Source: an uncultured Bacillota bacterium
GTDB lineage: Bacteria > Bacillota > Clostridia > Caldicoprobacterales > UBA3941
Reading direction: 5' to 3'
DNA: 58,677 bases
NCBI GenBank assembly: GCA_938003915.1
Contig: CALKWV010000050.1
Coordinates: forward strand, 1 to 58,677
Shown: in pieces, positions 10,162 to 56,967 of the stretch
Position numbering within the stretch: the stretch's first letter is position 1
Layout: the number at the start of each line of letters is the position of its first letter
The notes under the pieces: generated by a model
Seen by the model: only the letters and a program-made list of their open reading frames with translations
Told to the model about the DNA's origin: nothing
Databases searched by the model: none
Position numbers and translations under genes: made by a program

Positions 10162-10166
10162 TAATA

Positions 10167-10320: not shown

Positions 10321-10551
10321 AATAGCAACCCCCCACATTACGCGGGGGCTTGCTATTCCCATAATGCCGTTCTCTACTATTATTAGACCCGCCTCCTGGC
10401 AGGTGGGTGCCCTATTGCCCAATTCTGCCTTCCCCGCTAGGGGCATGACATCCTATGGGCAAACCCGAGCTCCCAATGTCATACTGTGGGTTAATAACAA
10501 TAGATTAACGAACATTACAGGATTATCAGCTAAATTTCTCATCTTACTGTA
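10321..10551 (-). ncRNA. Unassigned structured sRNA with a 6S-like rod architecture
   Basis: It has its own promoter and a 3' GC-rich hairpin (10321-10357). Arms 10488-10521 and 10358-10390 form a closing helix of about 31 bp (with G-U pairs and bulges). The GC-rich interior has a large internal loop and complementary UUGCCCA/UGGGCAA segments. It is a GC island in AT-rich DNA, and the only ORF over it has no SD. Confidence 0.5.
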
Positions 10552-24536: not shown

Positions 24537-24800
24537 TAAAAAAAGCCTTACATCCCAGGGACAAGGACGTAAGACTCCGCGGTACCACCTTGCTTTTTGC
24601 TTTTATAGCAATAATAACTATAAAAGCAAACACTCGAAATCTTTAACGGGATTAGCGTTTCAGCCTACTAATGGTTCAGCTGAAATGTTCAGAAGCGACC
24701 TTCCATTTTCTCCAACCGGGGAAATCTCTCAGCCAGTGGATTTCCTTTTCTGTCGGCCTTGAAAATGTACTCCTCTTCCTCATCACATTAATATGAAATT
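24537..24800 (-). promoter_or_regulatory. T-box leader, Val specifier (GUA), with terminator
   Basis: T-box sequence AAGGUGGUACCGCGG (24577-24592). Specifier loop …UUAGUAGGC with GUA at 24666-24668. Terminator cuuacgucc…gggauguaagg followed by a U7 run (24537-24576). Confidence 0.9.
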
Positions 24801-25623: not shown

Positions 25624-25700
25624 TGGTCGGGATGACAGGATTTGAACCTGCGACCCCTTGCTCCCGAAGCAAGTGCGCTACCAAGCTGCGCTACATCCCG
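25624..25700 (-). tRNA. tRNA-Pro (anticodon CGG), CCA encoded
   Basis: Acceptor CGGGAUG/CAUCCCG, anticodon stem CUUGC/GCAAG, loop UUCGGGA. Confidence 0.9.
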
Positions 25701-25707
25701 AATTGTA

Positions 25708-25783
25708 TGGAGCCAATAAGGGGACTCGAACCCCTGACCTACGGTTTACGAGACCGTTGCTCTACCATCTGAGCTATATTGGC
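25708..25783 (-). tRNA. tRNA-Thr (anticodon CGU), CCA encoded
   Basis: Acceptor GCCAAUA/UAUUGGC, anticodon stem ACGGU/ACCGU, loop CUCGUAA. Confidence 0.9.
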
Positions 25784-41371: not shown

Positions 41372-41408
41372 AAATTGAAAACAAACTAAATAATAATTAG
41401 TATCTTAA

Positions 41409-41582
41409 TGCGGTTAGAGGTGCATCTTTTATGAGTAAGTTTCCGGAGAATGCGGAATTCTGTGAAGGGACCCAAAGGAAAAGATGCCGAAAGGTATAAA
41501 TGTCCGCAATTTATACCTTGGTCCTAGGGTGAACAACTCTAGGATTGTCATCAAATGTTTATTTGATGGAGAGCTAACTGCT
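41409..41582 (+). promoter_or_regulatory. Lysine riboswitch (L-box)
   Basis: P1 GCGGUUAG/CUAACUGC. Conserved AGAGGUGC, GAGUA, GAAGGG, GCCGAAAGG, CUUGGUC, GUCA and GAUGGAGAGCU blocks occur in the canonical order. Confidence 0.85.
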
Positions 41583-41616
41583 TTCGTATACCTTGTTCAT
41601 TTTACAGGTGTGACGA

Positions 41617-41692: not shown

Positions 41693-42703
41693 ATGAGAAA
41701 ATATAATCTTGCAATAGTTGGAGTCACCGGAATGGTGGGCCGGAAATTTCTGGAAGTGTTGGAGGAAAAACAACTACCTATCGAAAACTACTATATGTTC
41801 GCTTCTGCACGATCTGCTGGTAAAGTCATCAATTTCATGGGTAAAGATCATGTGGTAGAAGAACTTAGCCCTACATGCTTTGATGGTAAGGATATTGATA
41901 TTGCCCTTTTCTCCGCCGGGGCTAGCGTAAGCAAAACCTACGCGCCTATTGCTGCTGAGAAAGGAATAGTAGTTATTGATAACAGCAGTGCATGGAGAAT
42001 GGAACCTGATGTACCTTTAGTAGTTCCTGAGGTAAATCCTGAAGAAATTTTAAACCATAAAGGTATAATAGCCAATCCTAATTGTTCTACCATTCAAGCT
42101 GTAGTAGCTTTAAAACCCTTATATGATAGATATGGTATAAAAAGAATTGTATATTCTACCTATCAAGCTGTTTCAGGGGCAGGAGTAGCAGGATATAATG
42201 ACCTTGAGAATGGAATAAAGGGAGAAGCTCCACAAAAATTCCCTCATCCTATCTTTAGTAATTGTATTCCCCATATTGATTCCTTTTTAGATAATGGATA
42301 TACTAAAGAAGAGATGAAGATGATCGAAGAAACTAAGAAAATCTTAAAGGATAATAGTTTGAGAATTACTGCAACAACTGTTAGGGTGCCTGTATTTAAT
42401 GGGCATAGTGAATCTATTAATGTAGAATTGAAAAAGGAATTTGATTTAGACGAATTGAAAGACCTATTAGCAAATGCTCCCGGTGTTGAAGTAATTGACA
42501 ATCCTGCCAACAATCAATATCCAATGCCCATAAATTGCGACGGCAAAGACCAAGTTTTTGTAGGTAGAATTCGAAGGGATGAAAGCGTAGACAACGGAGT
42601 TAACTTATGGGTTGTTGCGGATAACATTAGAAAAGGAGCTGCCACCAACACTGTCCAAATTGCCGAAAAATTAATCTGGTACTGGCAAAATCAAGCTCTC
42701 TAA
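41693..42703 (+). CDS. asd: Aspartate-semialdehyde dehydrogenase
   Basis: GVTGMVG Rossmann motif, active site NPNCSTI, QAVSGAG. Confidence 0.92.
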   Translation: MRKYNLAIVGVTGMVGRKFLEVLEEKQLPIENYYMFASARSAGKVINFMGKDHVVEELSPTCFDGKDIDIALFSAGASVSKTYAPIAAEKGIVVIDNSSAWRMEPDVPLVVPEVNPEEILNHKGIIANPNCSTIQAVVALKPLYDRYGIKRIVYSTYQAVSGAGVAGYNDLENGIKGEAPQKFPHPIFSNCIPHIDSFLDNGYTKEEMKMIEETKKILKDNSLRITATTVRVPVFNGHSESINVELKKEFDLDELKDLLANAPGVEVIDNPANNQYPMPINCDGKDQVFVGRIRRDESVDNGVNLWVVADNIRKGAATNTVQIAEKLIWYWQNQAL

Positions 42704-42737: not shown

Positions 42738-43967
42738 TTGCATATGATAAAAATAATTATCCACGGATGCAATGGTAAGATGGGGCAAGTAGTAGCGTCC
42801 ATGGCTATTAAACAGCCTGACATCCAAGTAGTGGCCGGCGTGGATAGGGTTACTGATGCCTGTGACAATCCATTCCCAGTATATCCATCATTGGACCAAT
42901 GTCCTGAGGAGTGTGATGTCATTATCGACTTTTCTCTACCTCAGGCCCTGCCCTCCTTATTGGATGCAGCTGTCAAGCGAAATTGCGCCCTAGTTATCGC
43001 AACTACAGGTTTTAATCAAAAAGAGCAGGAAACAATTGAAGCATACAGCAAAAGGATACCAATTTTACAAGCTGCCAATATGTCTGTAGGTATTAATTTG
43101 ATGTACCAACTTATTCAAAAAGCAGCACAAGTGCTTGGAGATTCCTTTGATATCGAAATTATTGAAAAGCATCATAACCAAAAAATTGATGCTCCCAGTG
43201 GAACTGCCTACGCTTTGGCGGATGCCATAAATGAAGTATTCCTTAATTCAAAAAACTATATATATGGAAGGCATTCCAAGAATGATAGGAGATCACCTTC
43301 TGATATGGGCATCCACGCTATACGAGGGGGTACCATAGTAGGGCAGCATACAGTATTATTTGCCGGAAATGATGAAACTATTGAAATAGAGCATACTGCA
43401 TATTCTAAGCAAATATTTGCCGTAGGAGCCCTTAGGGCTGCACGATATATGGCAAATAGAGCTCCTGGGTTATATAACATGAAAAATGTACTAGATGATA
43501 GAAGTCCCGTTACCAATATTACAACCCAGGACAATATTATTCTAGTATCTATTCGCAATGCACCTGCTAAGCTCAATACCATTGCTAATATATATAGAGA
43601 ATTTGCTGGAGAAAACAATTACTTGGAGTTAATTAGTCAAACTTCTCCTGCAGATAGAATGAGTGATATTGCCTTTGCCCTATCAGCGGATAATCTCCAA
43701 AAAGCAGAAAACTTTTGTAAAGATCTAGCATCAAAGGACAATGGCATCTCCATAAAATTGGACACCAATATTATAAAGATGTCCATTGAAGGATTAGGCT
43801 TAGAGCAACAACCAAGAATAGCTGCCACAGTCTTTGAATTGTTCACCAAGCATAATATACCCATTAAAGCTTCGGTTACATCTAACAAAAAAATCGGTTG
43901 TTTTATCAATAAAATCCATGAAAAACAAGCTATGGATATGTTAATCGATGAATTCGGTTTACAATAA
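42738..43967 (+). CDS. dapB: 4-hydroxy-tetrahydrodipicolinate reductase fused to a C-terminal aspartokinase-type ACT domain pair
   Basis: Residues 1-255 are DapB (GCNGKMG, EKHHNQKIDAPSGTA, IRGGTIVGQHTVLFAG). Residues about 258-409 (DNA 43509-43967) resemble the aspartokinase regulatory ACT repeats (…IIKMSIEGLGLEQQPRIAATVFELFTKHNIPIKASVTSNKKIGCFI…). Confidence 0.85.
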   Translation: MHMIKIIIHGCNGKMGQVVASMAIKQPDIQVVAGVDRVTDACDNPFPVYPSLDQCPEECDVIIDFSLPQALPSLLDAAVKRNCALVIATTGFNQKEQETIEAYSKRIPILQAANMSVGINLMYQLIQKAAQVLGDSFDIEIIEKHHNQKIDAPSGTAYALADAINEVFLNSKNYIYGRHSKNDRRSPSDMGIHAIRGGTIVGQHTVLFAGNDETIEIEHTAYSKQIFAVGALRAARYMANRAPGLYNMKNVLDDRSPVTNITTQDNIILVSIRNAPAKLNTIANIYREFAGENNYLELISQTSPADRMSDIAFALSADNLQKAENFCKDLASKDNGISIKLDTNIIKMSIEGLGLEQQPRIAATVFELFTKHNIPIKASVTSNKKIGCFINKIHEKQAMDMLIDEFGLQ

Positions 43968-44063: not shown

Positions 44064-45401
44064 TTAAAGTGCTATCTTAAAGATAAACAATACTGCAAGA
44101 ACATACATTAGAGGTTGAACCTTCTTAGCATTACCGGAGAGAACTTTCAGAATAACCCAGGATAGTATACCAAATACTATTCCTTCAGCAATGCTGCTTG
44201 TAAAAGGCATCATTATAATTGCCAAGAAAGCAGGTAAACCTTCTGTGAAATCATTAAAGTCAATCTTGGTAATGGCAGTTACCATAAACAATCCTACTAC
44301 AACCAAAGCAGGTGCAGTGGCAAAGGAAGGGATTGCCGTAAAGATAGGAGCAAAAATCAGAGCCACAACAAACAATACACCAGTAGTAAGTGCAGTAAGT
44401 CCAGTTCTTCCACCTTCTGCTACTCCTGATGCACTTTCTACGTAGCTGGTAACTGTAGAAGTACCTAAGGAAGCACCTGCAACAGTACCTATAGCGTCTG
44501 CCAATAGCGCTTCTTTTGCTCTAGGTAGTTTTCCGTCCTCATCAAGGAGATTTCCTTTACTTGCCACACCAATAAGAGTTCCTACAGTATCAAATATATC
44601 AACAAACAGGAATGAAAACATAATAACGAAGAATTCAAATCCTAACTTAAATGCTCCAGCAAAATCAAATTTAAAAAATGTAGGAGCTACTGAAGGTGGT
44701 AGAGAAATAAGCTGTAAGGATGGAATAAGGTCAAATCTTCCTGCATCTGGATCAACAGTATATAGTCCAGTCAACTGACATATAATACCTAAAATATAGG
44801 TACCTAAAATACCCCAAAGAAGCGCACCTTTTACTCCCTTATGAGTCATATAAACAATAGCTATTAATCCAATAAGGGATAAAATTACAGTAATATCGGT
44901 TAAGTCTCCAAGCCCTATCATAGTTCCTTCATTTGGTACAACTATACCAGCGTTTTGCAATCCAATAAGGGCAATAAATAGTCCTATTCCCACAGTAATA
45001 GCATATTTTAAGTTTTCAGGCATACCATTAACTATTGCTTCTCTAAATCTAAAAAATGACAAAAGAATAAATATTATACCTTCAATAAGTATAGCAACTA
45101 ATGCAATTTCCCATGAATATTGAGATGCAACAATTGCAAAAAAAGCATTAAGTCCCATCCCTGATGCCAGGGCAACAGGATAGTTAGCCAAAAATGCCAT
45201 GGCAATAGTAGCTATAGCCGCAGATAGAGCCGTTGCAGTGAAAACAGCACCTCTATCCATGCCAGCAGAAGATAAAATGTTTGGATTTACAACTAGGATA
45301 TAAGCCATAGTCATAAATGTTGTAATACCGGCCATGATCTCAGTTCTTACATTGGTGTTGTGTTCTTTTAACTTAAATGTGCGTTCAAAGAAACCATTCA
45401 T
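44064..45401 (-). CDS. NCS2/AzgA-family purine permease (guanine/hypoxanthine PbuG/PbuO-like)
   Basis: The N-terminus MNGFFERTFKLKEHNTNVRTEIMAGITTFMTMAYILVVNP is diagnostic of the AzgA/PbuG family. It is preceded by a guanine riboswitch. Confidence 0.85.
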   Translation of the reverse strand: MNGFFERTFKLKEHNTNVRTEIMAGITTFMTMAYILVVNPNILSSAGMDRGAVFTATALSAAIATIAMAFLANYPVALASGMGLNAFFAIVASQYSWEIALVAILIEGIIFILLSFFRFREAIVNGMPENLKYAITVGIGLFIALIGLQNAGIVVPNEGTMIGLGDLTDITVILSLIGLIAIVYMTHKGVKGALLWGILGTYILGIICQLTGLYTVDPDAGRFDLIPSLQLISLPPSVAPTFFKFDFAGAFKLGFEFFVIMFSFLFVDIFDTVGTLIGVASKGNLLDEDGKLPRAKEALLADAIGTVAGASLGTSTVTSYVESASGVAEGGRTGLTALTTGVLFVVALIFAPIFTAIPSFATAPALVVVGLFMVTAITKIDFNDFTEGLPAFLAIIMMPFTSSIAEGIVFGILSWVILKVLSGNAKKVQPLMYVLAVLFIFKIAL

Positions 45402-45502: not shown

Positions 45503-45541
45503 ATATTGGAAAGCTTTAAAGCTTCTCAATATAACACAATT

Positions 45542-45612
45542 CACACATAGCCTATGGCAGTTACGGCTGCCTGGTAGAAACTCCCGAACCAATTATCAGG
45601 ATTATATGAGTG
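45542..45612 (-). promoter_or_regulatory. Purine riboswitch, guanine type (C at the specificity position)
   Basis: CACUCAUAUAAUCCUGAUAAUUGGUUCGGGAGUUUCUACCAGGCAGCCGUAACUGCC..GGCUAUGUGUG. P1, the UAUAAU J1/2, GUUUCUAC J2/3 and the CCGUAA L3 are all present. Confidence 0.85.
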
Positions 45613-45629
45613 CTATTTGTTACATTGAT

Positions 45630-45723: not shown

Positions 45724-46974
45724 CTATTTCCCAATATCTGTCCTAAAGTTCATTCCTTTAAAGCTTATATTATCAATATTAGCGTATATTTTATCTCTTG
45801 CTTCTTCTAAAGAATTTGCCAATGCAGTTACAGATAGCACCCTTCCTCCAGCTGTTAGCAGCTTATCCTTTTTATACTCGGTTCCATTATGAAATAAGAT
45901 TATATCCTTTTCTAGCTTGTCTTTTATACTAATTTCAAAACCCTTTTCAAATTCCCCGGGATAGCCTTCAGATGTTAACACTACAGTCATACAGCTTTGC
46001 TGGCTCCATTTAATATCTGAAGGCTTTAGTGATGAACCTATGGTCTTTTCAAAAAGCTCAACTATATCAGATTCCAGTCTAGGGATAAGGACTTCTGTTT
46101 CCGGATCTCCGAACCTTACATTGAACTCTAAAACTTTAGGGTTACCTTGAACTATCATAAGGCCAACATATAGGATGCCTTTGTAATTTAAGTTTTCCTT
46201 ATTTAACCCATCCTCTATTCTATCAAGCACTTCTTCCTTTATTCTCTTTTCCAAATCTTTGGTAAGCAATGGACTTGGAGAAAAAGCTCCTACTCCCCCC
46301 GTGTTTGGTCCTAGATCTCCATCATATATTTTCTTATAATCCTTAGCACTTTCCATAGGAATTATTCTATTATCCGTTACAAAGCATAGTAGAGACATTT
46401 CAATTCCATCTAAATACTCTTCAATTACCACCCTATTTCCTTGCTCACCAAACTTCTTATCTACTAATATTTCCTCAAGTATCTTTAATGCCTCTTCTTT
46501 TGTGTCTACTATTTCTACACCCTTCCCTGCACATAGGCCATCAGCCTTGATTACCAGCGGATAGGAAAAACTATTTAAATCTTGGCAGGCATCCTTATAA
46601 CTTTCATAGCTCTGATATTTTGCCGTTGGGATATCATATTTTTTCATAAATTCCTTGGCGTAGCTTTTACTGCCTTCCAATCTGGCGCTTTTTTTGTCTG
46701 GTCCAAATATTCTCAGTCCTTTCTCTTGGAACCTGTCGACAATTCCCAGAACTAGTGGTTCCTCAGGACCTACTACAGTTAAATCAATGTTGTTTTTTAG
46801 GGCGAATTCTACCAAAGCATCTATATCGTTTGCTTTTATATCTACATTTTCTGCAACTAGCCTGGTACCTCCATTGCCAGGAGCACAATACACTTTTTCT
46901 ACTTCTTTTGACTGGGAAATCTTCCAGCACAAGGTATGTTCTCTTCCTCCGCTGCCTACGACTAGTACTTTCAC
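45724..46974 (-). CDS. purD: Phosphoribosylamine--glycine ligase
   Basis: Full-length ATP-grasp PurD (MKVLVVGSGGREH…). GTG start. Confidence 0.95.
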   Translation of the reverse strand: MKVLVVGSGGREHTLCWKISQSKEVEKVYCAPGNGGTRLVAENVDIKANDIDALVEFALKNNIDLTVVGPEEPLVLGIVDRFQEKGLRIFGPDKKSARLEGSKSYAKEFMKKYDIPTAKYQSYESYKDACQDLNSFSYPLVIKADGLCAGKGVEIVDTKEEALKILEEILVDKKFGEQGNRVVIEEYLDGIEMSLLCFVTDNRIIPMESAKDYKKIYDGDLGPNTGGVGAFSPSPLLTKDLEKRIKEEVLDRIEDGLNKENLNYKGILYVGLMIVQGNPKVLEFNVRFGDPETEVLIPRLESDIVELFEKTIGSSLKPSDIKWSQQSCMTVVLTSEGYPGEFEKGFEISIKDKLEKDIILFHNGTEYKKDKLLTAGGRVLSVTALANSLEEARDKIYANIDNISFKGMNFRTDIGK

Positions 46975-46986
46975 TCTTAATACCCC

Positions 46987-48513
46987 CTAGTGTTTAAAGT
47001 GCCTAATGCCAGTAAACACCATGGCAATATTGTGCTTATTTGCCTCTTCAATTACTTCTCCATCCCTTATGGAGCCTCCAGGTTGTATTATGGCTGTTAC
47101 ACCCCATTGGCCTAGCAGCTCAATAGAATCTTTAAACGGGAAAAATCCGTCAGAGGCCAAGACGCTTCCCTTTACCTTATCCTTTGCTCTTTCTACTGCA
47201 TTTTGTACTGCCCAGAAGCGGTTTACCTCGCCTCCACCTATGCCAATGGTACCTTTATCCTTAGCAATAACAACCCCATTGGATTTTAGGTGTTTAACAG
47301 CCTTCCAGGCAAAGATCAGATCTTCCATTTCCTCTTCTGTAGGCTTTCTTTCTGTCACCACTTTCATATCATCTAAAAAGTTAATTACGTCCTTGTCCTG
47401 AACTAAAATACCACCAGATATGTTTTTAACTTCCAGACCCTTGTCCTCCTTCTTTATAGCCCCCAGTTCTATAAGCCTTAAGTTTTTCTTTTTAGTTAAA
47501 ATTTCCAAGGCTTCATCTGTGAAGGAAGGCGATATGATTACCTCTAAAAAGATTTTAGCCATTTCCTTGGCAACTTCCCCATCAACTTCCCTGTTCGTTG
47601 CAATTATTCCACCATATATAGATTCTTTATCGCATTCATAGGCTTTTAAATAGGCTTCTAATAGATTTTCTCCGCTTCCTATACCGCAGGGATTTGCATG
47701 TTTTACGGCAACTACAGTGGGCTGGTCAAACTCTCTTACCATATCAATAGCAGCATTACCGTCGTTTATATTATTGAAGGACAATTCCTTTCCATGAAGT
47801 TTTTTCCCAAGGGCAATACTACCTTCAGTTGGATCTGGGCTAACATAGAATGCAGCTTTTTGATGGGGATTTTCACCATATCTTAAATTGTCCTTTAGCT
47901 TATATCCCAGAGTCAAATAAGCGGGGAATTCTACTTCTTCTAGCTCATTAAAATATTTAGATATGAGGGCATCATAATAAGCAGTATAGTTAAAAACTTT
48001 TCTTGCTAGATAAAGGCGGGTCTCTAGGCTAGTATCATTACTTTCTTTAAGCTCCGACAATACTTTGGGATAATCTTCAGGATCTATTATTACTGTTACG
48101 TACTTATAGTTTTTGGCTGCAGCTCTTATCATGGAAGGGCCACCTATATCTATATTTTCTATAATTTCATCATGGCCTTTTCCTTTTAACATTGTTTCTT
48201 CAAAGGGATATAGATTATTAACCACCATATCTATGGAAGATATATTCATATCCTCCAATGTTTTTACATGCTTCTCATCGTCCCTTTTATAAAGAATTCC
48301 TCCGTGGATATAGGGGTTTAAAGTTTTTACCCTTCCATTTAAAATTTCAGGAAAGTCGGTAACCTCTTCAATTTCTACAACATCAATACCGGCATTTTTA
48401 AGCTCTGCAAAAGTACCCCCTGTAGAAATTATTTGCCAGCCTAACTCCACCAATTCCTTTGCAAAATCCACTATTCCTCTCTTATCAAAAACACTAATCA
48501 ATGCTCTTTTCAA
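46987..48513 (-). CDS. purH: Bifunctional AICAR transformylase / IMP cyclohydrolase
   Basis: Start placed at TTG 48513 (AAGGAG 8 nt upstream), giving MKRALISVFDKRG, the usual PurH N-terminus. Confidence 0.95.
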   Translation of the reverse strand: MKRALISVFDKRGIVDFAKELVELGWQIISTGGTFAELKNAGIDVVEIEEVTDFPEILNGRVKTLNPYIHGGILYKRDDEKHVKTLEDMNISSIDMVVNNLYPFEETMLKGKGHDEIIENIDIGGPSMIRAAAKNYKYVTVIIDPEDYPKVLSELKESNDTSLETRLYLARKVFNYTAYYDALISKYFNELEEVEFPAYLTLGYKLKDNLRYGENPHQKAAFYVSPDPTEGSIALGKKLHGKELSFNNINDGNAAIDMVREFDQPTVVAVKHANPCGIGSGENLLEAYLKAYECDKESIYGGIIATNREVDGEVAKEMAKIFLEVIISPSFTDEALEILTKKKNLRLIELGAIKKEDKGLEVKNISGGILVQDKDVINFLDDMKVVTERKPTEEEMEDLIFAWKAVKHLKSNGVVIAKDKGTIGIGGGEVNRFWAVQNAVERAKDKVKGSVLASDGFFPFKDSIELLGQWGVTAIIQPGGSIRDGEVIEEANKHNIAMVFTGIRHFKH

Positions 48514-48518
48514 TGTCC

Positions 48519-49139
48519 TCACTCCTTATTCTTTATTCTTACTAATCTTCCTTTTATAGATAATTTGTTTTCGCAAAATAATTTTATAGCTTGTACTAAT
48601 AACTTGTGTTCTACTTCAAGAACCTTCTTTTTTAAGGTGTCTATGGTATCATTTTCATCAACCCTAACTACCTCTTGGAGTATTATGGGGCCTGTATCAG
48701 TACCTTCATCAACAAAATGGACAGTAGCTCCAGTATATTTAACTCCATATTCAAGTACTGCCCTGTGAACCCTATCTCCGTAATAACCTTTGCCACAAAA
48801 ACTTGGTATTAGGGATGGATGGATGTTTATAATTTTATTTTTGTATTCTTCTATAAATTCCTTTGATAATATCCTTAAATAACCTGCTAATACTACTAAA
48901 TTCACATCTCTCTTCTTTAGCTCGCATAATATTCTTTGATCATAAGCAGCATCATAATCTTTTGGATCTAAAAACATAGATTCAATATTGGCCTTTTGGG
49001 CCCTTATAAGGCCATGGGCATCTTTCCTATTTGATATAACTATCTTTATTCTTCCATTTATAATTCCTTTATCTATCCCATCTATAATAGCTTGTAGATT
49101 AGTCCCATTGCCGGATATAAGCACCCCTATGTTTACCAT
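48519..49139 (-). CDS. purN: Phosphoribosylglycinamide formyltransferase
   Basis: [22 protein letters not shown] and [13 protein letters not shown] motifs. Confidence 0.92.
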
Positions 49140-50164
49140 GATAGTACTACTCCTTCATTACCCCTTCTTACATCTCCCAGCACATAATATTTTTCATTCT
49201 TATCCTTTAGATGCTGCTCTAAATGTGTCAGCTCTTGCTTATCAACAACCAACACCATTCCAACTCCCATGTTGAAGGTCCCATACATTTCATGAGTTTC
49301 AACCTGCCCCCATTTCTGCAATAAATTAAATATTTCAGGTGTTTGGATTACAGATACATCTATATAGGCAGCTAAACCCTCCGGAAGCATTCTAGGAATG
49401 TTTTCTATAAAGCCTCCTCCTGTTATATGACTAATACCTTTTATATTGACCTTAGCTACTAAGTCTGTTATAACATCTGCATATATTCTGGTAGGCTTAA
49501 GGAGTTCTTCTCCTAGAGTAGTTTTTAGCTCTGGTACATAGGTGTCCACATCCATTTTTTCCTTTTCAAATACAATTTTCCTTACCAGAGAATATCCATT
49601 GCTATGAATTCCACTTGAAGGTAGCCCTATAACAACATCCCCTTCCTTTATATCAGCGCCGGTTATCAAATTCTTTTTGTCAACAACACCTACGCAAAAA
49701 CCTGCTATATCGTATTCTCCATCAGCATAAAAACCAGGCATTTCCGCAGTTTCACCGCCTATTAAGGCGCATCCTGCCTTTATACAGCCATTGGAGACAC
49801 CTTCAACAATCTCCGCCATCTTTTCTGGTTCCAGCTTGCCCGTGGCAATATAATCCAAGAAAAACATGGGTTTTGCTCCTTGGCACAAAATATCATTTAC
49901 ACACATTGCAACACAATCTTCCCCAACGGTATCATGCTTGTCCATCATAAAGGCGATTTTTAGTTTGGTTCCCACTCCATCGGTTCCTGATACCAGAATG
50001 GGCTCTTCATAAGCCTTAATATCCAGCTGAAAAAGTCCTGCAAAGCCTCCAATATCCGACAAAACTCCTGGAGTATGGGTTTTGCTAATAAACTTTTTAA
50101 TTAGCTGAACCTGTTTATAGCCAGCTTCTTTGTCAACCCCCGCGTCCTTGTATGTTAGTGACAT
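49133..50164 (-). CDS. purM: Phosphoribosylformylglycinamidine cyclo-ligase (AIR synthetase)
   Basis: Full-length PurM (YKDAGVD…, [18 protein letters not shown]). Confidence 0.95.
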
Positions 50165-50290
50165 TTTAACACCTCTCTGTCCTTAATTTCGCATATTTGA
50201 TGATATAGCAGTTATCACTATGGAATATAATATTCTATTGAAATAACTATATATAGGATTTACTAACACAAACACTTGACTAAAATTACA

Positions 50291-51625
50291 CTACACTGGG
50301 TATCCTCCAGTAAAACAGCCTGTGCAAAAGCCGTCATCTCCTCCAATGGCCTTGATAAGCCCCTCCAAGGAAATATAGTATAAAGAATCAGCTCCTAACT
50401 GCTTTCTAATATCTTCAACAGTCATACTTTTGGCCATTAAAAATTCTTCATTGGGAGTATCCATGCCCAGATAACAGGAATGGGTTACTGGAGGCGAACT
50501 TATTCTGACATGGACTTCTTTAGCTCCGGCTTTTTTTAATAATTCTATAATTCTCTTTATTGTAGTTCCTCTTACTATGGAATCATCCACCAACACAACC
50601 CTTTTTCCATTTACGTTATCCTTTAAAACATTTAACTTTATTTTTACCCCTTGCTCTCTTAGCTCCTGAGTTGGCTGAATAAAGGTTCTGCCTACATATC
50701 TATTTTTTATCAAACCATCCCTGTAGGGGATTTTGGATTCTTCCGCATAGCCTACGGCTGATACTATTCCTGAGTCTGGTGCTCCAATTACTATATCTGC
50801 ATCTACAGGGCTTTCTCTGGCCAACTGCCTTCCTATTTCAATTCGTGCTGTATATATACTTCTATTGTCCACCTGACTATCTGGCCTTGCAAAGTATATA
50901 TACTCAAATAGGCAGTGGCTGACCTTGCCTTTCTTTTGACAAACAGTCCTTACTCCATTTTCATCTATGACTATCATTTCTCCAGCATCAATATTTCGAA
51001 TAATGTCTGCTCCAATGGTATCGAAAGCACAGGTTTCAGAGGCTATTATATAGCCATCCTTAATCTTACCTAAGACCATAGGTCTTATGGCATGAGGATC
51101 CCTTGCGGCAATTAGGCTGCTGGCATTCATCATAACTATGCTATAGGAGCCCTTTATATCATCCAAAGCCTTCATAATGGCCTCTTCTAACCTGTCCTTA
51201 TGATATCTTGCTATTAAGTTGGCAATAACCTCTGCATCTAAAGTGCTTTGGAATATTACGCCCTTATCCTCTAATTCATCCCTTAGTGCCTTTGCATTTA
51301 CAATACTTCCATCAAGGCAAAGAGCAAGTGCTCCTTTTCTATAGCCCACAACTAAGGGTTCTACATTGGTTTTATCCTTACTGTCATGGCTTGTAGCATA
51401 CCTAACATGACCTATAGCAATATTTCCTATAAGTCTTTCTATTACATCCTTTGAAAATACTTCATTGACTAATCCCTGCCCCTTATGGTAATCAACAAAG
51501 CCGTTGTTGTTGACTGCTATACCTGTACTGGCTTGGCCTCTATGCTGCAGCGCATATAGACCATAATAGGCAATTTGGGATGCATCCACTCTATTTGGGC
51601 TGTATATTCCAATTATTCCGCTCAA
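50291..51625 (-). CDS. purF: Amidophosphoribosyltransferase with a non-canonical N-terminal nucleophile (Ser instead of Cys)
   Basis: TTG start lies 6 nt after GGAGGG. The PRTase motif VVLVDDSIVRGTT and four Fe-S Cys are present. The N-terminus is M-SGIIGIY instead of M-CG(I/V)xGI. Confidence 0.9.
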   Translation of the reverse strand: MSGIIGIYSPNRVDASQIAYYGLYALQHRGQASTGIAVNNNGFVDYHKGQGLVNEVFSKDVIERLIGNIAIGHVRYATSHDSKDKTNVEPLVVGYRKGALALCLDGSIVNAKALRDELEDKGVIFQSTLDAEVIANLIARYHKDRLEEAIMKALDDIKGSYSIVMMNASSLIAARDPHAIRPMVLGKIKDGYIIASETCAFDTIGADIIRNIDAGEMIVIDENGVRTVCQKKGKVSHCLFEYIYFARPDSQVDNRSIYTARIEIGRQLARESPVDADIVIGAPDSGIVSAVGYAEESKIPYRDGLIKNRYVGRTFIQPTQELREQGVKIKLNVLKDNVNGKRVVLVDDSIVRGTTIKRIIELLKKAGAKEVHVRISSPPVTHSCYLGMDTPNEEFLMAKSMTVEDIRKQLGADSLYYISLEGLIKAIGGDDGFCTGCFTGGYPV

Positions 51626-51636
51626 TATGTTCCCTC

Positions 51637-52119
51637 CTATTGTTCTTGGATGGTTTTGTCCATCTCAGCTACCTCTTCAGCCAATCCCTTTTTATATTCC
51701 TTTAGTTTTTCCTTTAGCTCAGGATACTTAAGTGACAACATTTGTACTGCTAGCAGGGCTCCATTCTCCCCTCCATCTATGGCAACAGTCGCTACCGGAA
51801 CCCCTTTGGGCATTTGAACTACAGATAAAAGGGAGTCTAGTCCATCCATTGTTGAAGATTTTGCCGGAATACCTATAACTGGAAGGTGGGTAACGCCAGC
51901 CATTACCCCGGCTAAATGAGCTGCCTTGCCTGCAATAGCTATAATGACTTCAATCCCTCTTTCTTCTGCCTTTTTTGCAAATTCAAAGGCGGTATAGGGA
52001 GTTCTATGGGCTGATATAACCCTTAGTTCATAATCCACCCCAAATTTGTCTAATATCCCTGTTACCTTATCTCCTAAATGCTTATCGGATATACTTCCCA
52101 TAACAACAGCTACCTTCAA
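51637..52119 (-). CDS. purE: 5-(carboxyamino)imidazole ribonucleotide mutase
   Basis: MGSISD, SAHRTP and AGKAAHLAGVMAG (class I-like 70s loop). TTG start after GGAGGG. Confidence 0.92.
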   Translation of the reverse strand: MKVAVVMGSISDKHLGDKVTGILDKFGVDYELRVISAHRTPYTAFEFAKKAEERGIEVIIAIAGKAAHLAGVMAGVTHLPVIGIPAKSSTMDGLDSLLSVVQMPKGVPVATVAIDGGENGALLAVQMLSLKYPELKEKLKEYKKGLAEEVAEMDKTIQEQ

Positions 52120-52130
52120 TTTAGACCCTC

Positions 52131-55100
52131 CTATTTAAAATATTTAACTCCAGATTCAAATATATTGTGTATTCCCTTTATAGGAACATTTTTGTAAATA
52201 TCTTTACCCATTCTATCTATGGCGCTTACAGTTCCTAATATCCTTCCATCAGGACTGGTAAGAGAATCTATAGCTAAATCAGAACCTGTAGGATTAATAT
52301 CCACAAACTGAGTGGCTATTTGCCCCTTGGCTCCCAGGTCTGCTTTTCCTAAAACTACCCTACCTTCTCTAGTTGCAACTGGTACTGAATAAATATCACC
52401 TACATTCATTCCACTCATCCAGGGAGAAAGGTTGGATACTACTTTGACATCTACTATGGTTGATATAAAGTTGCCCCATAAATTGCTTGTAATAGATGTT
52501 GAATTTTGGTCTGGCTTTGCAATGTATCCTTTTTCTATAAGCCCCAGCTTAATTAAAGCATTTAGTCCACTACCGATTCCTAAAACCAGACCGTCCTTTG
52601 TAGTTATATGCTCATTTAGAACTTCTTTGAGCCTTGGATGGTTAAATAATATATTTATTAGCTTTCCTCCACCTTCAGGCTCGTTGCCCAAGATAAATCC
52701 ATTAGCAAAAACTAGTATCTGGCACTGGCTAATCCTTTTTGCTAATTCATCTATGGACTCTTGGATTTTATCCTTAGTTAGTCCCTTAAATACAAAGGTC
52801 TCAACCTCTGCACCAGCCTCTTTAAACCTAAGCTCAGCATCGTATTCCCCATGAGTTCCTGAAAATATAGGTATTAATACTTTTGGTTTTGTTATGCTTG
52901 TTGCTTTTGTCCTCTTTATCTGGTTTCCTTCCCGATATAGAATTTCATCAGCTTCCACTTTTTCTTTATAAATAGGAAATACATCCTTGAGCGGGCTTTG
53001 CCATTGTTCCATAATTTCCTTGAGGCTTATGGAAACCTCACCTAATCTTATCTCTTCTCTTTCTACAGTTCTACCTACAATAGAGTAGTCTATGCCATCA
53101 AGCAGAGATGCTAAATCTTCTCCCTCTTTTATTTCCAACACAATTGATCCGTATAAAGGTTTATAAATCACGCTTAATATATCAGCATCAAATTCAAAGC
53201 CTATTCCGTTGCCACAGGCCATTTCAGAAATACTTCTTGCAATACCTCCAAATTTTACAGCAGAACTTGATAATACTATGCCTTTATCTACTAATTCTTT
53301 TATCCTGGTATAATTTTTCTTTAGCTGTTCAAAGTCCACCAATCCATTTTCATCAATATTTAGATTTATGACTACAACCTGGGAATTAGGCTCTTTAAAC
53401 TCTTTGGAAACTACATTTTTCACATCCTCTGTAACCACAGCAAAGCTTATAAGAGAAGGGGGTACGTTTATATCTTCAAAGGTACCGCTCATGCTGTCCT
53501 TTCCCCCAATACTAGGTATGTCCAAATTCTTTTGAACCATGAAGGCACCTAATAGGGCAGAAAAAGGTTTGCCCCACTTAGTTGGATCCTCACCTAACCT
53601 TTCAAAATATTCCTGGAAGGTTAGCCTTGCCTTTGTAAAATCTCCTCCTAAAGCTACTATCTTTGCTAGGGATTCTATAACTGCATAGTATCCTCCATGA
53701 AAAGGACTCCATTGGCATAGGCTTGGATCATAACCACAAGTCATTATGGAACAGGTGCTTGTCTTGCCATCTAAAACTGGCAACTTTGCAACCATTCCCT
53801 CCTGGGGAGTTATCTTATTTTTCCCTCCTAGAGGCATTAAAACAGTTCCTGAGCCATAGCTGCTGTCAAAGCTCTCTATTAACCCTTTTTGGCTAGCAGT
53901 GTTAAGATTGCTTATATTTCTAAGGAAATTATCTTTTAAGTCTCCATCCTTGATATACTCCGGATTCCTCTTTAGATATATATCCTCATCTGGTAGTTGA
54001 ACTCTTACTTTGGCTTTATTTCTAATTCCGCCGCTATTTAGGAAATCGCTTTCTAAATCTAATACTGTCTTTCCTCGCCATGTCATTGTAACCCTGTTAT
54101 TATCCGTTACTTCTGCAACTATTGATCCTTCAAGGTCTTCTCTCTCTACAAGCTCCATAAATTTATCTAAGTTCTTCCTATCTATTAACACTGCCATTCT
54201 TTCTTGGGACTCGGAGATAGCTATTTCCCAATCCTTAAGACCTGGATACTTTAGAGGAACTTTATCCAAATTAATATCTAATCCATCTGCCAGCTCTCCT
54301 ACAGCAACAGCGACTCCACCAGCTCCAAAATCGTTGCATTTCTTTATAAGCCGTGTTGTCTCCTTATTTCTAAAAAGCCTTACAATCTTTCGTTCCACTA
54401 TAGGATTTCCTTTTTGTACATCTGTACCCCTTTTTTCTAGAGCCTCTTCAGTATGTTCCTGGGATGAGCCTACAGCAGCACCAATTCCATCCCTTCCAGT
54501 TCTACCACCTATTAATACCACTACATCCCCCGCTTCTGGAGTACCCCTTAATACCCAATCCTTGGGTACGGCAGCCACTAGTGCCCCTAGTTCCATCCTC
54601 TTTGCAGCAAAGCCTTCATGGTAATACTCATTAACATATCCTGTAGCACTGCCTATCTGATAGCCGTAGGATGAGTAGCCTTCCATAGCCGTTCTGGTTA
54701 TCTGCCTTTGTGGTAGCTTTCCAGGTATTGTATCCTCATATTTGTGCCTTGGATCTGCAGCCCCGGTTATTCTCATAGCCTGATATACATATGCCCTTCC
54801 AGACAAAGGATCCCTAATGGCACCACCAAGGCAGGTTGCTGCACCACCAAAGGGTTCTATTTCTGTAGGATGGTTATGGGTTTCATTTTTAAACATTAAA
54901 AGCCATTTTTCAGTCTTTCCATTGTGATCCACGTCTACCTCTATGGAAGCAGCATTTACTTCATCTGTTTCTTCTTTGTCTTCCAGCAATCCCTTCTTCT
55001 TTATTTCTTTCATATTTATAGTTGCCATATCCATAAGGGTAATGGGATTTGGGTTATCTCCATAAACATATTGTCTTGATGCTAAGTATTCTTTTAATGC

Positions 55101-55838
55101 TTGTTCAAAAACTTCCCTTAATTTGCCTTCCTCTATTTCCACATGGGTTATTTCAGTATTAAAGGTTTTGTGCCTACAATGATCAGACCAATAGGTATCT
55201 ATTACCTTTAATTCAGTAACGGTTGGATTTCTGTGAGCATTTTTAAAATATTCCTGACAGAATTGGAGATCCTCTAAATCCATAGCTAGTCCCAAAGATT
55301 TTAACAATTTTTCTAGGCCTTCTTTATCCAAATCTATAAAGCCATCTACAATTTCAACATCATCCGCAATATCCTCTTCTTCTAAAAAGCTTTCTTTATC
55401 AAGGGGAATTTCTCTCGATTCAGTAGGATTGATGTAGTAGGATTTTATTTTTTCAAGATCTGTGTCAGAAATGTTTTTAAGGATTATATACTTAGAATGC
55501 TGGATTTTTACCTTATCATATCCAAGATAGTTATTAACCAATTCATTGGCAGCAGCTTCCCTTTGGTTGTATTGTCCTCCAATATTTTCAACCCTAAAAG
55601 CTTTTTCATCCTTATCAATTGGGGGCATATCTTCGTATAAGTAATCTATGGCTGGTTCATATAGAACCATTTCAATGATATTGTCTATTTCATTTTTCTT
55701 TGCACCATAAATTTCATAAGAGTTTATAACTCTAACTCTTTCAAGGGTCTCTATGCCTAAATAGTCTTTAAATTCAGTGTACAATTCTCTCGCTTCTGAA
55801 TTTACAGCACTCTTTTTTTCGATCAATATTCTTTTCAT
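52131..55838 (-). CDS. purL: Phosphoribosylformylglycinamidine synthase, single-chain clostridial type, with a degenerate glutaminase domain
   Basis: 1235 aa. The synthetase core is conserved (…NETHNHPTEIEPFGGAATCLGGAIRD…). The C-terminal domain of about 250 aa aligns to the PurQ-like glutaminase but lacks the Cys/His/Glu triad. Confidence 0.95.
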   Translation of the reverse strand: MKRILIEKKSAVNSEARELYTEFKDYLGIETLERVRVINSYEIYGAKKNEIDNIIEMVLYEPAIDYLYEDMPPIDKDEKAFRVENIGGQYNQREAAANELVNNYLGYDKVKIQHSKYIILKNISDTDLEKIKSYYINPTESREIPLDKESFLEEEDIADDVEIVDGFIDLDKEGLEKLLKSLGLAMDLEDLQFCQEYFKNAHRNPTVTELKVIDTYWSDHCRHKTFNTEITHVEIEEGKLREVFEQALKEYLASRQYVYGDNPNPITLMDMATINMKEIKKKGLLEDKEETDEVNAASIEVDVDHNGKTEKWLLMFKNETHNHPTEIEPFGGAATCLGGAIRDPLSGRAYVYQAMRITGAADPRHKYEDTIPGKLPQRQITRTAMEGYSSYGYQIGSATGYVNEYYHEGFAAKRMELGALVAAVPKDWVLRGTPEAGDVVVLIGGRTGRDGIGAAVGSSQEHTEEALEKRGTDVQKGNPIVERKIVRLFRNKETTRLIKKCNDFGAGGVAVAVGELADGLDINLDKVPLKYPGLKDWEIAISESQERMAVLIDRKNLDKFMELVEREDLEGSIVAEVTDNNRVTMTWRGKTVLDLESDFLNSGGIRNKAKVRVQLPDEDIYLKRNPEYIKDGDLKDNFLRNISNLNTASQKGLIESFDSSYGSGTVLMPLGGKNKITPQEGMVAKLPVLDGKTSTCSIMTCGYDPSLCQWSPFHGGYYAVIESLAKIVALGGDFTKARLTFQEYFERLGEDPTKWGKPFSALLGAFMVQKNLDIPSIGGKDSMSGTFEDINVPPSLISFAVVTEDVKNVVSKEFKEPNSQVVVINLNIDENGLVDFEQLKKNYTRIKELVDKGIVLSSSAVKFGGIARSISEMACGNGIGFEFDADILSVIYKPLYGSIVLEIKEGEDLASLLDGIDYSIVGRTVEREEIRLGEVSISLKEIMEQWQSPLKDVFPIYKEKVEADEILYREGNQIKRTKATSITKPKVLIPIFSGTHGEYDAELRFKEAGAEVETFVFKGLTKDKIQESIDELAKRISQCQILVFANGFILGNEPEGGGKLINILFNHPRLKEVLNEHITTKDGLVLGIGSGLNALIKLGLIEKGYIAKPDQNSTSITSNLWGNFISTIVDVKVVSNLSPWMSGMNVGDIYSVPVATREGRVVLGKADLGAKGQIATQFVDINPTGSDLAIDSLTSPDGRILGTVSAIDRMGKDIYKNVPIKGIHNIFESGVKYFK

Positions 55839-55883
55839 ATTCTACTCCTCCTTGATAGTCTTATAGACCATTATCTTCGCCAT

Positions 55884-55928
55884 AAACAAAAACCAGTTGA
55901 ATAGGTTAAGCGAAACCTACCCAACTGG
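55884..55928 (-). terminator. Expression-platform terminator of the intra-operon riboswitch
   Basis: CCAGUUGGGUAGG/CCUAUUCAACUGG (with G-U pairs) followed by UUUUUGUUU. Confidence 0.7.
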
Positions 55929-55952
55929 TCCAGAACCTCTAGGTATAGTTTC

Positions 55953-56021
55953 GCTCATAGTCAAATGATTTACGTTCATTTTGTAAAAACGTCTCAACCC
56001 TCTTTTGAGACTTATATGAGC
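55953..56021 (-). promoter_or_regulatory. Purine (guanine-type) riboswitch between purC and purL
   Basis: GCUCAUAUAAGUCUCAAAAGAGGGUUGAGACGUUUUUACAAAAUGAACGUAAAUCAUUUGACUAUGAGC. P1/P2/P3 and C74 are present. It begins 12 nt after the purC stop. Confidence 0.75.
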
Positions 56022-56032
56022 AAAACATTCAA

Positions 56033-56719
56033 CTAATCTTCAAACATCAATTTTTCTAGTTCAAGAGGTTCTACATATTTTCCATCCTTATAGACACGCA
56101 TATTGCCTCCAGAAATTTCATCTATGAGCCCAATATGACCATCTTCTCCAATTCTGCCAAACTCAAACTTTATATCGTATAATTCCAGTCCCTTTCTTTC
56201 AAGCTCGTCTTTTACTAACTTTGCAATTCTTTTAGTTAGCTCTTTGACTTCCTCATACTCTTCCTTAGTCATAATATCTAACATGACAAGACCGTCCTCT
56301 GTAATCAATGGATCATTTCTTTGGTCATCTTTCAAAGTTACTTCAATGTATCCATCAAGAGGCTGCCCTTCCTTCGCATAGGCTCCATAGCGGCGAATAA
56401 AGCTGCCCACAGCCCTATATCTAACTATTACTTCAATACCATTTCCAAATAGTTTTGCAGGCATTACTGTCATTGTGTTATTGTCTAAATCTGCATCTAT
56501 ATAATGAGTTGGAATATTTAGTTCCTTAAGCTTTTCGAAGAAAAATTTAGACATTTTCAAGTTTGATTTTCCCATGCCCTCAATCTTAGAAACCACAGTA
56601 TTTCCACCTGGATCAAATACTCCGTCCTCTCCTGTTACATCATCTTTAAACTTAAAAAGAAAATTTCCATCTTCCAATTTGTAAATATCCTTAGTCTTGC
56701 CCTTGTATACCAATTCCAT
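56033..56719 (-). CDS. purC: Phosphoribosylaminoimidazole-succinocarboxamide synthase
   Basis: Full-length SAICAR synthetase (…LVYKGKTKDIY…, short Firmicute form). SD GAGGTG. Confidence 0.95.
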   Translation of the reverse strand: MELVYKGKTKDIYKLEDGNFLFKFKDDVTGEDGVFDPGGNTVVSKIEGMGKSNLKMSKFFFEKLKELNIPTHYIDADLDNNTMTVMPAKLFGNGIEVIVRYRAVGSFIRRYGAYAKEGQPLDGYIEVTLKDDQRNDPLITEDGLVMLDIMTKEEYEEVKELTKRIAKLVKDELERKGLELYDIKFEFGRIGEDGHIGLIDEISGGNMRVYKDGKYVEPLELEKLMFED

Positions 56720-56745: not shown

Positions 56746-56782
56746 CCCAGTCTGGTAGATATGCGAAACCTAGCCGACTGGG
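56746..56782 (-). terminator. Terminator-like hairpin of the tandem riboswitch platform
   Basis: CCCAGUCGGCUAG/CUACCAGACUGGG. The 5' arm overlaps the 3' end of the ykkC-type aptamer. The trailing U-tract (UAUAAUAAUUUCU) is weak. Confidence 0.5.
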
Positions 56783-56870
56783 CTTTTCTCCCTTCGGTGT
56801 AATACTATCAAAAGATAATATCTGTACCGCTCGGACCAGACGAGATTCATTCTCCGGAACCCTAGGTACA
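56770..56870 (-). promoter_or_regulatory. ykkC-family subtype 2 aptamer (PRPP riboswitch-like)
   Basis: ACCUAGGGUUCCGG…CUGGUCCGAGCG…ACACCGAAGGGAGAAAAGCCCAG follows the ykkC fold blocks (CUAGGGUUCCG, GGUCCGAG, ACAC.G..GGGA.AAAAGCCC). It has ACCG where the guanidine-I class has ACGG. It sits immediately 3' of a guanine aptamer and 5' of purC. Confidence 0.6.
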
Positions 56871-56875
56871 CTTTC

Positions 56876-56944
56876 GCTCATAGCCGAATGATTTACGGTC
56901 ATTTTGTAGAAACGTCTCAACCATATTATGAGACTTATATGAGC
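56876..56944 (-). promoter_or_regulatory. Purine riboswitch, guanine type (5' member of the tandem)
   Basis: GCUCAUAUAAGUCUCAUAAUAUGGUUGAGACGUUUCUACAAAAUGACCGUAAAUCAUUCGGCUAUGAGC. Canonical L2 AUAUGG, J2/3 GUUUCUAC, L3 CCGUAAA and C74. Confidence 0.85.
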
Positions 56945-56967
56945 TAAATATTAACTTGTACATCTTA

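Follow-up and report, generated by a model that had tools for sequence, protein, structure and literature searches.

In textbooks, glutamine amidotransferases carry out steps 1 and 4 of purine synthesis. Here, we describe the enzymes of these two steps, PurF and in particular the single-chain phosphoribosylformylglycinamidine (FGAM) synthase PurL, encoded in a pur operon of an uncultured Bacillota bacterium (assembly GCA_938003915.1, contig CALKWV010000050.1, positions 1 to 58,677). The whole of this 58.7-kb stretch is called the window below. PurL retains a fused glutaminase domain that is predicted to be catalytically dead. A comparable situation is found in human CPS1, whose class I glutamine amidotransferase (GATase)-like domain is retained but inactive, the nucleophile Cys being replaced by Ser294, and which takes external ammonia (PMC4655335). 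Vertebrate CPS1 and the window PurL are both multidomain ATP-dependent synthetases of glutamine amidotransferase ancestry in which the nucleophile Cys is lost and the folded domain is kept. However, CPS1 is another enzyme in another pathway and kingdom, and it keeps the His and Glu residues, whereas the window PurL has lost all three triad residues. The ammonia dependence of CPS1 has been measured, whereas we infer that of the window PurL. CPS1 is the closest precedent for the window PurL.

Loss of a glutamine-hydrolyzing nucleophile has also been described at step 1. Archaeal PurF' and Mlab_0150 possess Ser, Ala, or Val at the position of Cys1, lie in purine clusters, and have been proposed to be ammonia-dependent phosphoribosyl pyrophosphate (PRPP) aminotransferases (PMC3261824). 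The Cys1 replacement is the same as in PurF of the window operon. In those archaea, however, a canonical Cys-PurF coexists and the PurQ triad is kept, whereas the Cys-less PurF of the window is the sole one in its operon and is paired with a Cys-less PurL. In gammaherpesviruses, the FGAM synthase homologues vFGARAT/vGAT are conserved though the amidotransferase catalytic residues are lost (PMC7605207). The viral proteins have wholly lost the enzyme function and have a role in host signaling, whereas only the glutaminase half appears to be dead in the window PurL, which belongs to a regulated biosynthetic operon.

The three-subunit PurL/PurQ/PurS system (Thermotoga maritima, PDB 3D54; Bacillus subtilis) contains the best structural match of the window pseudo-domain, PurQ. 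This PurQ is a separate, active subunit with Cys, His, and Glu, whereas the domain in the window is fused and predicted to be dead, with no purQ or purS nearby. Small PurL (smPurL) alone reportedly has NH3-dependent activity (Hoskins et al., 2004), which shows that the glutaminase is dispensable for the chemistry of the synthetase. Canonical TIGR01857 FGAM synthases (EC 6.3.5.3) share with the window PurL the length, the order of domains (a PurS-like N-terminus, a linker, a PurM-like synthetase, and GATase_5), 45–50% identity, identical synthetase motifs, and the same place in the pur operon. Unlike the window PurL, they possess LGICNGFQ, GHSER, FPGTNCEYD, and PGGFSAGDEP; the Cys, the His, the Glu, the first oxyanion-hole Gly, and the N-C pair in these motifs are replaced in the window. 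The glutaminase domain evolves more slowly than the core in the canonical members but faster than the core in the clade of the window.

The relevant features of the purL gene are as follows.

52131..55838, minus strand: purL, single-chain FGAM synthase, 1235 amino acids plus stop (list of open reading frames (ORFs), TIGR01857, and Pfam)
52959..55328, minus strand: FGAM synthetase core, aa 171-960, catalytic motifs intact
55170-55193, minus strand: core motif YWSDHCRH
54867-54884, minus strand: core motif ETHNHP
54315-54332, minus strand: core motif DFGAGG
54195-54215, minus strand: core motif SESQERM
53484-53507, minus strand: core motif GGKDSMSG
52134..52889, minus strand: pseudo-glutaminase domain, aa 984-1235, class I GATase/PurQ fold (PF13507, AlphaFold2, and Foldseek)
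52839..52865, minus strand: FSGTHGEYD, aa 992-1000, for FPGTNCEYD (GtnceyD aligns to GSNCDRD of PurQ)
52677..52706, minus strand: ANGFILGNEP, aa 1045-1054, for PGGFSAGDEP; the first Gly of the GG pair in the oxyanion hole is Asn
52572..52574, minus strand: GGT, Gly1089 at the nucleophile Cys position; the elbow G-x-C-x-G is G-I-G-S-G
52359..52379, minus strand: VATREGR for (I/V)SHGEGR, a remodeled loop that is conserved in PurQ-type domains (alignment)
52212..52223, minus strand: A1206-I-D1208-R1209 for H-x-E-R; His and Glu are gone and Arg is kept

The purL ORF lies on the minus strand and is uninterrupted over 1235 codons, the latter as an initial annotation made from the sequence had described. 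It matches NCBIfam TIGR01857, an equivalog model of the "clostridial-type" single-chain enzyme, over model positions 1-1239 with 1535.8 bits (curated cut-off, 1057.05 bits). Pfam detects FGAR-AT_linker, AIRS_C, and GATase_5 (PF13507), the last at aa 984-1234 (E = 4.7e-42, profile positions 1-260); the boundaries initially given for the glutaminase domain agree with this GATase_5 match at 52134-52889. Across 44 aligned sequences, both variant and canonical, H321-N-H-P, D503-x-G-A-G-G, E543-S-Q-E-R, and G779-K-D-S-M-S-G are invariant. The synthetase core is thus well conserved, as had been stated, but the label "ATP-grasp-like" attached to it is incorrect, since the core is PurM/AIR-synthase-like (PF02769).

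The positions of the triad residues should be noted. Four altered strings had been quoted for the glutaminase domain, and all of them are present: LGIGSGLNALIKLGL (aa 1086), GTVSAIDR (aa 1202), FSGTHGEYD (aa 992), and ANGFILGNEP (aa 1045). Canonical family members indeed read LGICNGFQALIKLGL, GKMGHSER, FPGTNCEYD, and PGGFSAGDEP, the consensus strings that the initial annotation had given. The three proposed replacements are borne out at the codon level: the nucleophile Cys is replaced by Gly1089 (GGT, 52572-52574), His by Ala1206 (GCC, 52221-52223), and Glu by Asp1208 (GAT, 52215-52217). In the alignment of the domain profile with PDB sequences, Gly1089 is matched to the catalytic Cys in both Thermotoga PurQ (LIMGICNGFQ) and Salmonella PurL (StPurL; LALGVCNGCQ), and A-I-D-R falls on H-P-E-R of the solved structures, with no gaps within the triad motifs. 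A profile search was needed for this alignment, since phmmer with the single domain sequence gave only a weak match to PurQ in the PDB. The loop at VATREGR corresponds to IAHGFGR in PurQ and VSHGEGR in StPurL in the same profile alignment. The oxyanion-hole motif is A-N-G in the window PurL and [AP]-[NHD]-G across the clade, as against P-G-G in canonical sequences. Approximately 11 residues after aa 1180 are deleted relative to the canonical members.

We aligned the window PurL with its 120 closest homologues (57–99% identity), giving 121 sequences that we call the clade. The Cys column is occupied by Gly in 120 sequences and Asn in one, the His column by Ser in 99 and otherwise by Ala, Asn, Cys, Leu, Asp, Pro, or Gly, and the Glu column by Asp in 118 of the 121. 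Meanwhile, G997, E998, T1156, E1158, D1208, and R1209 are conserved in at least 95% of the sequences, and H996 in 90%. A triad relocated within the domain was also considered; such a triad had been named as an observation that would overturn the initial interpretation. It was rejected: no Cys or His column of the domain reaches 95% in the 121 sequences (C1039, 60%; H996, 90%), and the lack of another conserved column means that there is no relocated triad.

The window PurL therefore belongs to TIGR01857 as a sequence family but does not possess the functional Cys-His-Glu triad of its members. Likewise, the class I GATase fold is found in the domain, but the nucleophile Cys, His-x-Glu, and the P-G-G of the oxyanion hole are not. 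Judging from these residues, the glutaminase domain is predicted with high confidence to be unable to hydrolyze glutamine, and the window PurL should not bear the "glutamine-hydrolyzing" number EC 6.3.5.3 without an assay.

The domain evolves under constraint. In three unsaturated pairwise comparisons (the window with homologous loci L081 and L082, and these two with each other), the ratio of nonsynonymous to synonymous substitution rates (dN/dS) is 0.075–0.115 for the pseudo-glutaminase domain, compared with 0.054–0.074 for the core. The amino-acid divergence of the domain relative to that of the core is 1.2–1.46-fold in the variant clade and 0.83–1.0-fold in canonical lineages. Constraint on the pseudo-glutaminase domain is eased by roughly half but is still strong, and 63 of the 267 domain positions reach a conservation of 95% or more within the clade. 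An AlphaFold2 model of the domain, built from a 58-sequence alignment, has a mean predicted local distance difference test score (pLDDT) of 90.5 and a predicted template modeling score (pTM) of 0.90. The best match of this model in the PDB by Foldseek is PurQ of the Thermotoga PurLQS complex (3d54_D, E = 7.8e-17), with a template modeling score (TM) of 0.86 when normalized by the target length. The next matches are the glutaminase domains of Salmonella and human FGAM synthase (1t3t and 9n9w, respectively), the TM for StPurL being 0.73–0.77.

Alignment by hidden Markov models (HMMs), superposition of an AlphaFold model, and comparison of dN/dS were among the checks that the initial annotation had proposed, and they gave a dead triad, a PurQ fold, and purifying selection. 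Its view that the gene is not decaying and has retained a pseudo-glutaminase domain is supported by the dN/dS values, the PurQ-like fold at a pLDDT of 90.5, and the invariant synthetase motifs. Sequencing error and a pseudogene were rejected as explanations of the altered triad, because the same state is found in 120 homologues, dN/dS is approximately 0.1, and metatranscriptome contigs are identical across the Gly1089 codon. As in CPS1, the nucleophile is gone, and the domain is predicted to be folded and is under purifying selection. The sequence evidence as a whole indicates that the fused class I glutaminase domain of PurL is catalytically dead and is kept under strong purifying selection, apparently as a structural part of the enzyme.

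The distribution of Cys-less PurL was examined in a family sample of 150 representatives, one per 50%-identity cluster, from 1.84 billion proteins, together with 80 genome loci. All of the 120 closest homologues, which include Tissierella, Gudongella, Schnuerera, and Tissierellia metagenome-assembled genomes (MAGs), lack the nucleophile Cys. Among the 150 representatives, the Cys is present in 96, and approximately 35–45, about a quarter of the clusters, are Cys-less. A neighbor-joining tree of the synthetase core only shows one large Cys-less clade, to which the window belongs, and scattered losses elsewhere, corresponding to approximately 15 state changes by parsimony, though this is a rough figure on a rough tree. 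Cluster look-ups (P0256 and P0248, for PurL only) place the PurL proteins of Aerococcus viridans/urinaeequi and Treponema phagedenis in the large Cys-less clade. A homologue search with a profile of Cys-less domains returned 27 sequences, which were mostly canonical fragments. Thus, the triad loss is not peculiar to the window genome; it is fixed in the nearest homologues and recurrent in the TIGR01857 family. No account of a bacterial FGAM synthase devoid of the triad turned up in the limited set of full texts that we searched.

A cultured gut isolate of Lachnospiraceae, Wansuia hejianensis NSJ-29, carries the same operon, with G/S/D in the triad columns of PurL.

GCA_014385225.1, 5810-11368: L090, the locus of Wansuia hejianensis NSJ-29

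The purC-purL-purE-purF-purM-purN-purH-purD module is common to Tissierellia and Wansuia, to an Aerococcus-like contig, and to further lineages. The presence of the Tissierellia-type operon in a Lachnospiraceae isolate, of the variant PurL with a Ser-PurF in the Aerococcus-like contig, and of the variant PurL in Aerococcus viridans/urinaeequi and Treponema phagedenis suggests horizontal transfer of the module or, for Wansuia, a taxonomic oddity.

The other glutamine-dependent enzyme of the pathway, PurF, is encoded in the same operon and is also altered at its glutamine site.

50291..51625, minus strand: purF, amidophosphoribosyltransferase (TIGR01134, 497 bits; cut-off, 350)
51620-51622, minus strand: AGC, Ser in place of Cys1, the N-terminal nucleophile (Ntn)
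51308-51316, minus strand: LDG of LDGS in place of HNGN, with the oxyanion Asn replaced by Asp (alignment with canonical C-G../AHNGN sequences)

The purF gene starts with TTG-AGC-GGA behind a GGAGGG ribosome-binding site and gives M-S-G-I-I-G-I, whereas every glutamine-dependent PurF protein has C-G-[IV]-x-G-[IV] at the N-terminus. No in-frame Cys was found upstream of the purF start in the codons read. Ser occupies position 1 (S-G-[IV]) in 118 of 118 informative homologues, and the oxyanion motif AHNGN reads xDGx in the variant PurF proteins. The PurF proteins of an Aerococcus-like contig, L089, and of Miniphocaeibacter (L008) additionally show deletions within the glutaminase half. L089, the sole Aerococcus-like contig examined, carries the variant PurL together with a Ser-PurF. 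In Escherichia coli PurF, substitution of Cys1 by Ser or Ala leaves no detectable glutamine activity, while NH3 is still used (PMC3261824). Among loci with both genes, a Cys-less PurL is accompanied by a Ser-PurF in 12, including the window, and by a Cys-PurF in none, and a canonical PurL is accompanied by a Cys-PurF in 10. The 12 loci form one clade and thus represent a linked module, not 12 independent events.

The operon and its surroundings contain the following features.

45724..56719, minus strand: pur operon purC-purL-purE-purF-purM-purN-purH-purD, without purQ or purS (NCBIfam equivalog models)
56861-56962, minus strand: purine riboswitch aptamer upstream of purC (RF00167, 77.6 bits)
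56773-56876, minus strand: ykkC-fold aptamer upstream of purC, scored as Guanidine-I (RF00442, 66.8 bits)
55938..56039, minus strand: purine riboswitch aptamer directly upstream of purL, its 5' end overlapping the last purC codons (RF00167, 69.2 bits)
45528-45629, minus strand: third purine riboswitch aptamer, upstream of a xanthine/uracil-family permease gene
44064-45401: Xan_ur_permease gene

Each of the eight pur genes was paired with an NCBIfam equivalog model, and all are intact and clustered. PurC (56033-56719, minus strand) is a short form of 228 residues, scoring 121.7 bits against a TIGR00081 cut-off of 189.9, and the same 228-residue form is found in the Wansuia locus. Three purine aptamers lie within 12 kb; the Rfam gathering scores are 37 for RF00167 and 63 for RF00442. 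The two aptamers before purC (56773..56962) are arranged in tandem, the purine aptamer followed by the ykkC-fold aptamer with a 16-nt overlap, and this layout agrees with the published guanine-PRPP logic gate (PMC5912903). None of the Rfam families specific for PRPP matched the ykkC-fold aptamer, which is hence reported as Guanidine-I-like only.

Contigs from four anaerobic-digester metatranscriptomes cover the operon at at least 99% identity; the coverage includes 52079-52852 and the whole pseudo-domain, and the Gly codon is unchanged. The sequence is present in digester, compost, manure, and fecal metagenomes. Carriers of the variant inhabit ammonia-rich settings such as digesters, compost, and manure.

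A separate glutaminase was searched for in the window and around related loci; a stand-alone purQ whose product complements PurL had been named as a finding that would speak against the initial interpretation. With HMMs for the GAT domain and for the PurS-like N-terminus, no PurQ-like or PurS-like ORF besides purL was found in the six-frame ORFs of the window, and no other amidotransferase is found among the proteins encoded in its remainder. In the 10-kb flanks of 88 related loci, only PurL itself was detected, save for a split canonical gene in L070. At that canonical locus, a 242-aa ORF of its own (6099-6824) encodes the glutaminase domain, which may reflect a frameshift, a fault in the assembly, or a true split of PurL. 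A separate purQ is thus absent from the window and from every 10-kb flank, which is the extent of the search.

The loss of the PurL triad and of the nucleophile and oxyanion Asn of PurF suggests that both glutamine-dependent steps of inosine monophosphate (IMP) synthesis, PurF at step 1 and PurL at step 4, would run on ammonia. We lean toward this reading of the sequences, in which ammonia would be the donor and the whole pur operon would be glutamine-independent. In PurL, the PurM-like core would activate formylglycinamide ribonucleotide (FGAR) with ATP, and free ammonia would then attack, so that the amidine nitrogen would come from cytoplasmic NH3/NH4+ instead of glutamine. The family-wide loss in PurL together with the co-loss in PurF turns what would be a curiosity of a single protein into a possible switch of nitrogen donor at the level of the pathway.

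The synthetase may need the dead domain to fold, to form the interface with the N-terminal domain, or to provide the ammonia tunnel with its mouth, and the role kept by the domain would be scaffolding or allostery. The mouth of the tunnel in Salmonella PurL is gated by N1051, S1052, and R1263 (PMC7124931). His996, Gly997, and Arg1209 are the probable counterparts of these residues in the window PurL, where N1051 and S1052 are matched by motif position and not by direct alignment. We also attempted to map Salmonella D657, the partner of the Arg in the mouth gate, but the fragment search matched smPurL structures only. The Arg is conserved and the Ser/Cys position of the gate is now Gly, and a permanently open tunnel mouth is therefore a concrete idea; the vestigial glutamine pocket or tunnel mouth formed by His996, Gly997, and Arg1209 could serve as an ammonia entry.

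Several observations weigh against ammonia as the donor in a glutamine-independent operon. The binding of glutamine and the formation of a thioester trigger the opening of the tunnel in canonical FGAM synthases (PMC13013826, PMC7124931). Such a trigger cannot exist in the window PurL. The large PurL (lgPurL) of E. coli reportedly makes very poor use of NH3, its Km being close to 1 M (Schendel et al., 1989), and an efficient ammonia-dependent enzyme would therefore need adaptation. A stand-alone set of PurQ, PurS, and smPurL or a second Cys-PurF could lie elsewhere in the genome; Methanocorpusculum labreanum carries such a pair of PurF genes (PMC3261824). The co-occurrence of the PurL and PurF variants is phylogenetically non-independent, since it comes from one large clade, and a non-Cys PurF stands beside a canonical PurL with Cys, His, and Glu at four loci. 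One of the four, from a Peptostreptococcaceae MAG (L046), has a Ser-PurF with M-S-G-I-F-G-I, and the other three (L051, L068, and L075), from Oscillospiraceae/Eubacteriales MAGs, have a divergent PurF-like protein with M-G-G-F-F-G-A and without HNGN. PurF has thus lost its nucleophile more widely than PurL. The invariant Ser1 of PurF could in principle serve as the Ntn nucleophile. Furthermore, metatranscriptome assemblies can hold DNA, and Aerococcus is not obviously a specialist of ammonia-rich settings.

Other sources of nitrogen have to be weighed against free ammonia. The lack of a PurQ/PurS-like ORF in the window and in the flanks of the 88 loci, though the other pur genes are clustered there, makes it unlikely that the synthetase still depends on glutamine and is fed ammonia in trans by a glutaminase from another part of the genome, whether a stand-alone PurQ or a different class I GATase, with the dead domain acting as a docking adaptor. 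The fused domain would itself sit where PurQ docks in the solved complexes, judging from the Foldseek superposition on 3d54 and 1t3t, and the co-loss in PurF would be left unexplained, as the glutaminase of PurF is never a separate subunit. In favor of supply in trans, three-subunit PurL/PurQ/PurS systems with a separate PurQ exist (PMC3261824; 3d54), the search covered the window and the 10-kb flanks, and the surface that is conserved on the pseudo-domain (63 positions at or above 95%) could form an interface. Alternatively, the domain could still be a glutaminase or amidase by non-canonical chemistry involving His996, Glu998, Thr1156, Glu1158, Asp1208, and Arg1209, with Ser1 of PurF as a serine Ntn nucleophile and the nitrogen taken from glutamine or another amide. 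The pocket is highly conserved (H996 at 90%; E998, T1156, E1158, D1208, and R1209 at 95% or more), and position 1 of PurF shows no drift from Ser in the 118 homologues. Ser is a genuine nucleophile in other Ntn hydrolases. We nevertheless regard such chemistry as quite unlikely. In PurL, the nucleophile position is held by Gly, which offers no side chain, and the residue at the His position varies freely (S, A, N, C, L, D, P, or G), a signature of lost function; the GG pair of the PurL oxyanion hole is altered, the oxyanion Asn of PurF is replaced too, with that segment wholly deleted in some lineages, and glutamine activity is undetectable in E. coli PurF C1S (PMC3261824).

It is also conceivable, though very improbable, that the operon does not serve de novo purine synthesis, the cells living on salvage and the variant PurL and PurF being kept for a regulatory or structural role like the viral FGARAT homologues. 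All eight clustered genes are intact, the motifs of the synthetase do not vary and its core has a dN/dS of 0.054–0.074, and degradation is confined to the glutaminase halves, sparing the synthetase and phosphoribosyltransferase halves. Three purine aptamers and a ykkC-fold (PRPP-type) aptamer accompany the genes as in bona fide biosynthetic operons, and the operon is represented in metatranscriptomes. What speaks for salvage is that non-metabolic pseudo-enzyme homologues of FGAM synthase do occur in herpesviruses (PMC7605207) and that a purine permease gene under a purine riboswitch adjoins the operon.

Ammonia-dependent synthesis by PurF and PurL may be extended from the window to a mobile unit, for which the chances seem about even. 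A glutamine-independent purine operon, in which PurF and the single-chain PurL would both depend on ammonia and their dead domains would act as scaffolds or ammonia ports, would have spread horizontally among Tissierellia, Lachnospiraceae (Wansuia), Aerococcus, and Treponema phagedenis, while the PurL nucleophile would have been lost about a dozen further times in the family.

Some other features of the window are recorded here. The ORF at 42738-43967 (plus strand), which follows asd (41693-42703), encodes a complete DapB (aa 3-253; TIGR00036, 231 bits) fused to a C-terminal ACT-like region of the aspartate-kinase type (aa 250-408), and a lysine riboswitch (41407-41584, plus strand) precedes both asd and this fusion ORF. 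A tetrahydrofolate (THF) riboswitch is located at 531-626 (plus strand), 6S RNA at 10352-10526 (minus strand), and a T-box leader at 24560-24792 (minus strand), upstream of valS (21628-24285). The window also has four tRNA genes, at 10090-10240 and 25627-25783.

The concept of an amidotransferase that has lost glutamine use is already known from CPS1, PurF', and viral vFGARAT. In the present case, a large lineage, much of it uncultured, has lost the residues for glutamine use at both steps; cultured carriers of the variant PurL are found in Tissierella, Wansuia hejianensis, Aerococcus viridans, and Treponema phagedenis. If the proposed ammonia dependence is true, bacterial PurL, together with PurF, would join the short list of amidotransferases that have reverted to ammonia while keeping a pseudo-glutaminase domain. 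The enzyme would then be a natural system for studying the roles of the glutaminase domain other than ammonia production, namely folding, allostery, and tunnel gating. The numbers EC 6.3.5.3 and EC 2.4.2.14 would be systematic mis-annotations that feed metabolic models. If the mobile operon is real as well, the nitrogen source that textbooks give for purine N3 and N9 would not hold in a considerable part of the anaerobic Firmicutes. Ammonia dependence at these steps would tie nucleotide synthesis to ammonium availability in digesters, compost, and the gut.

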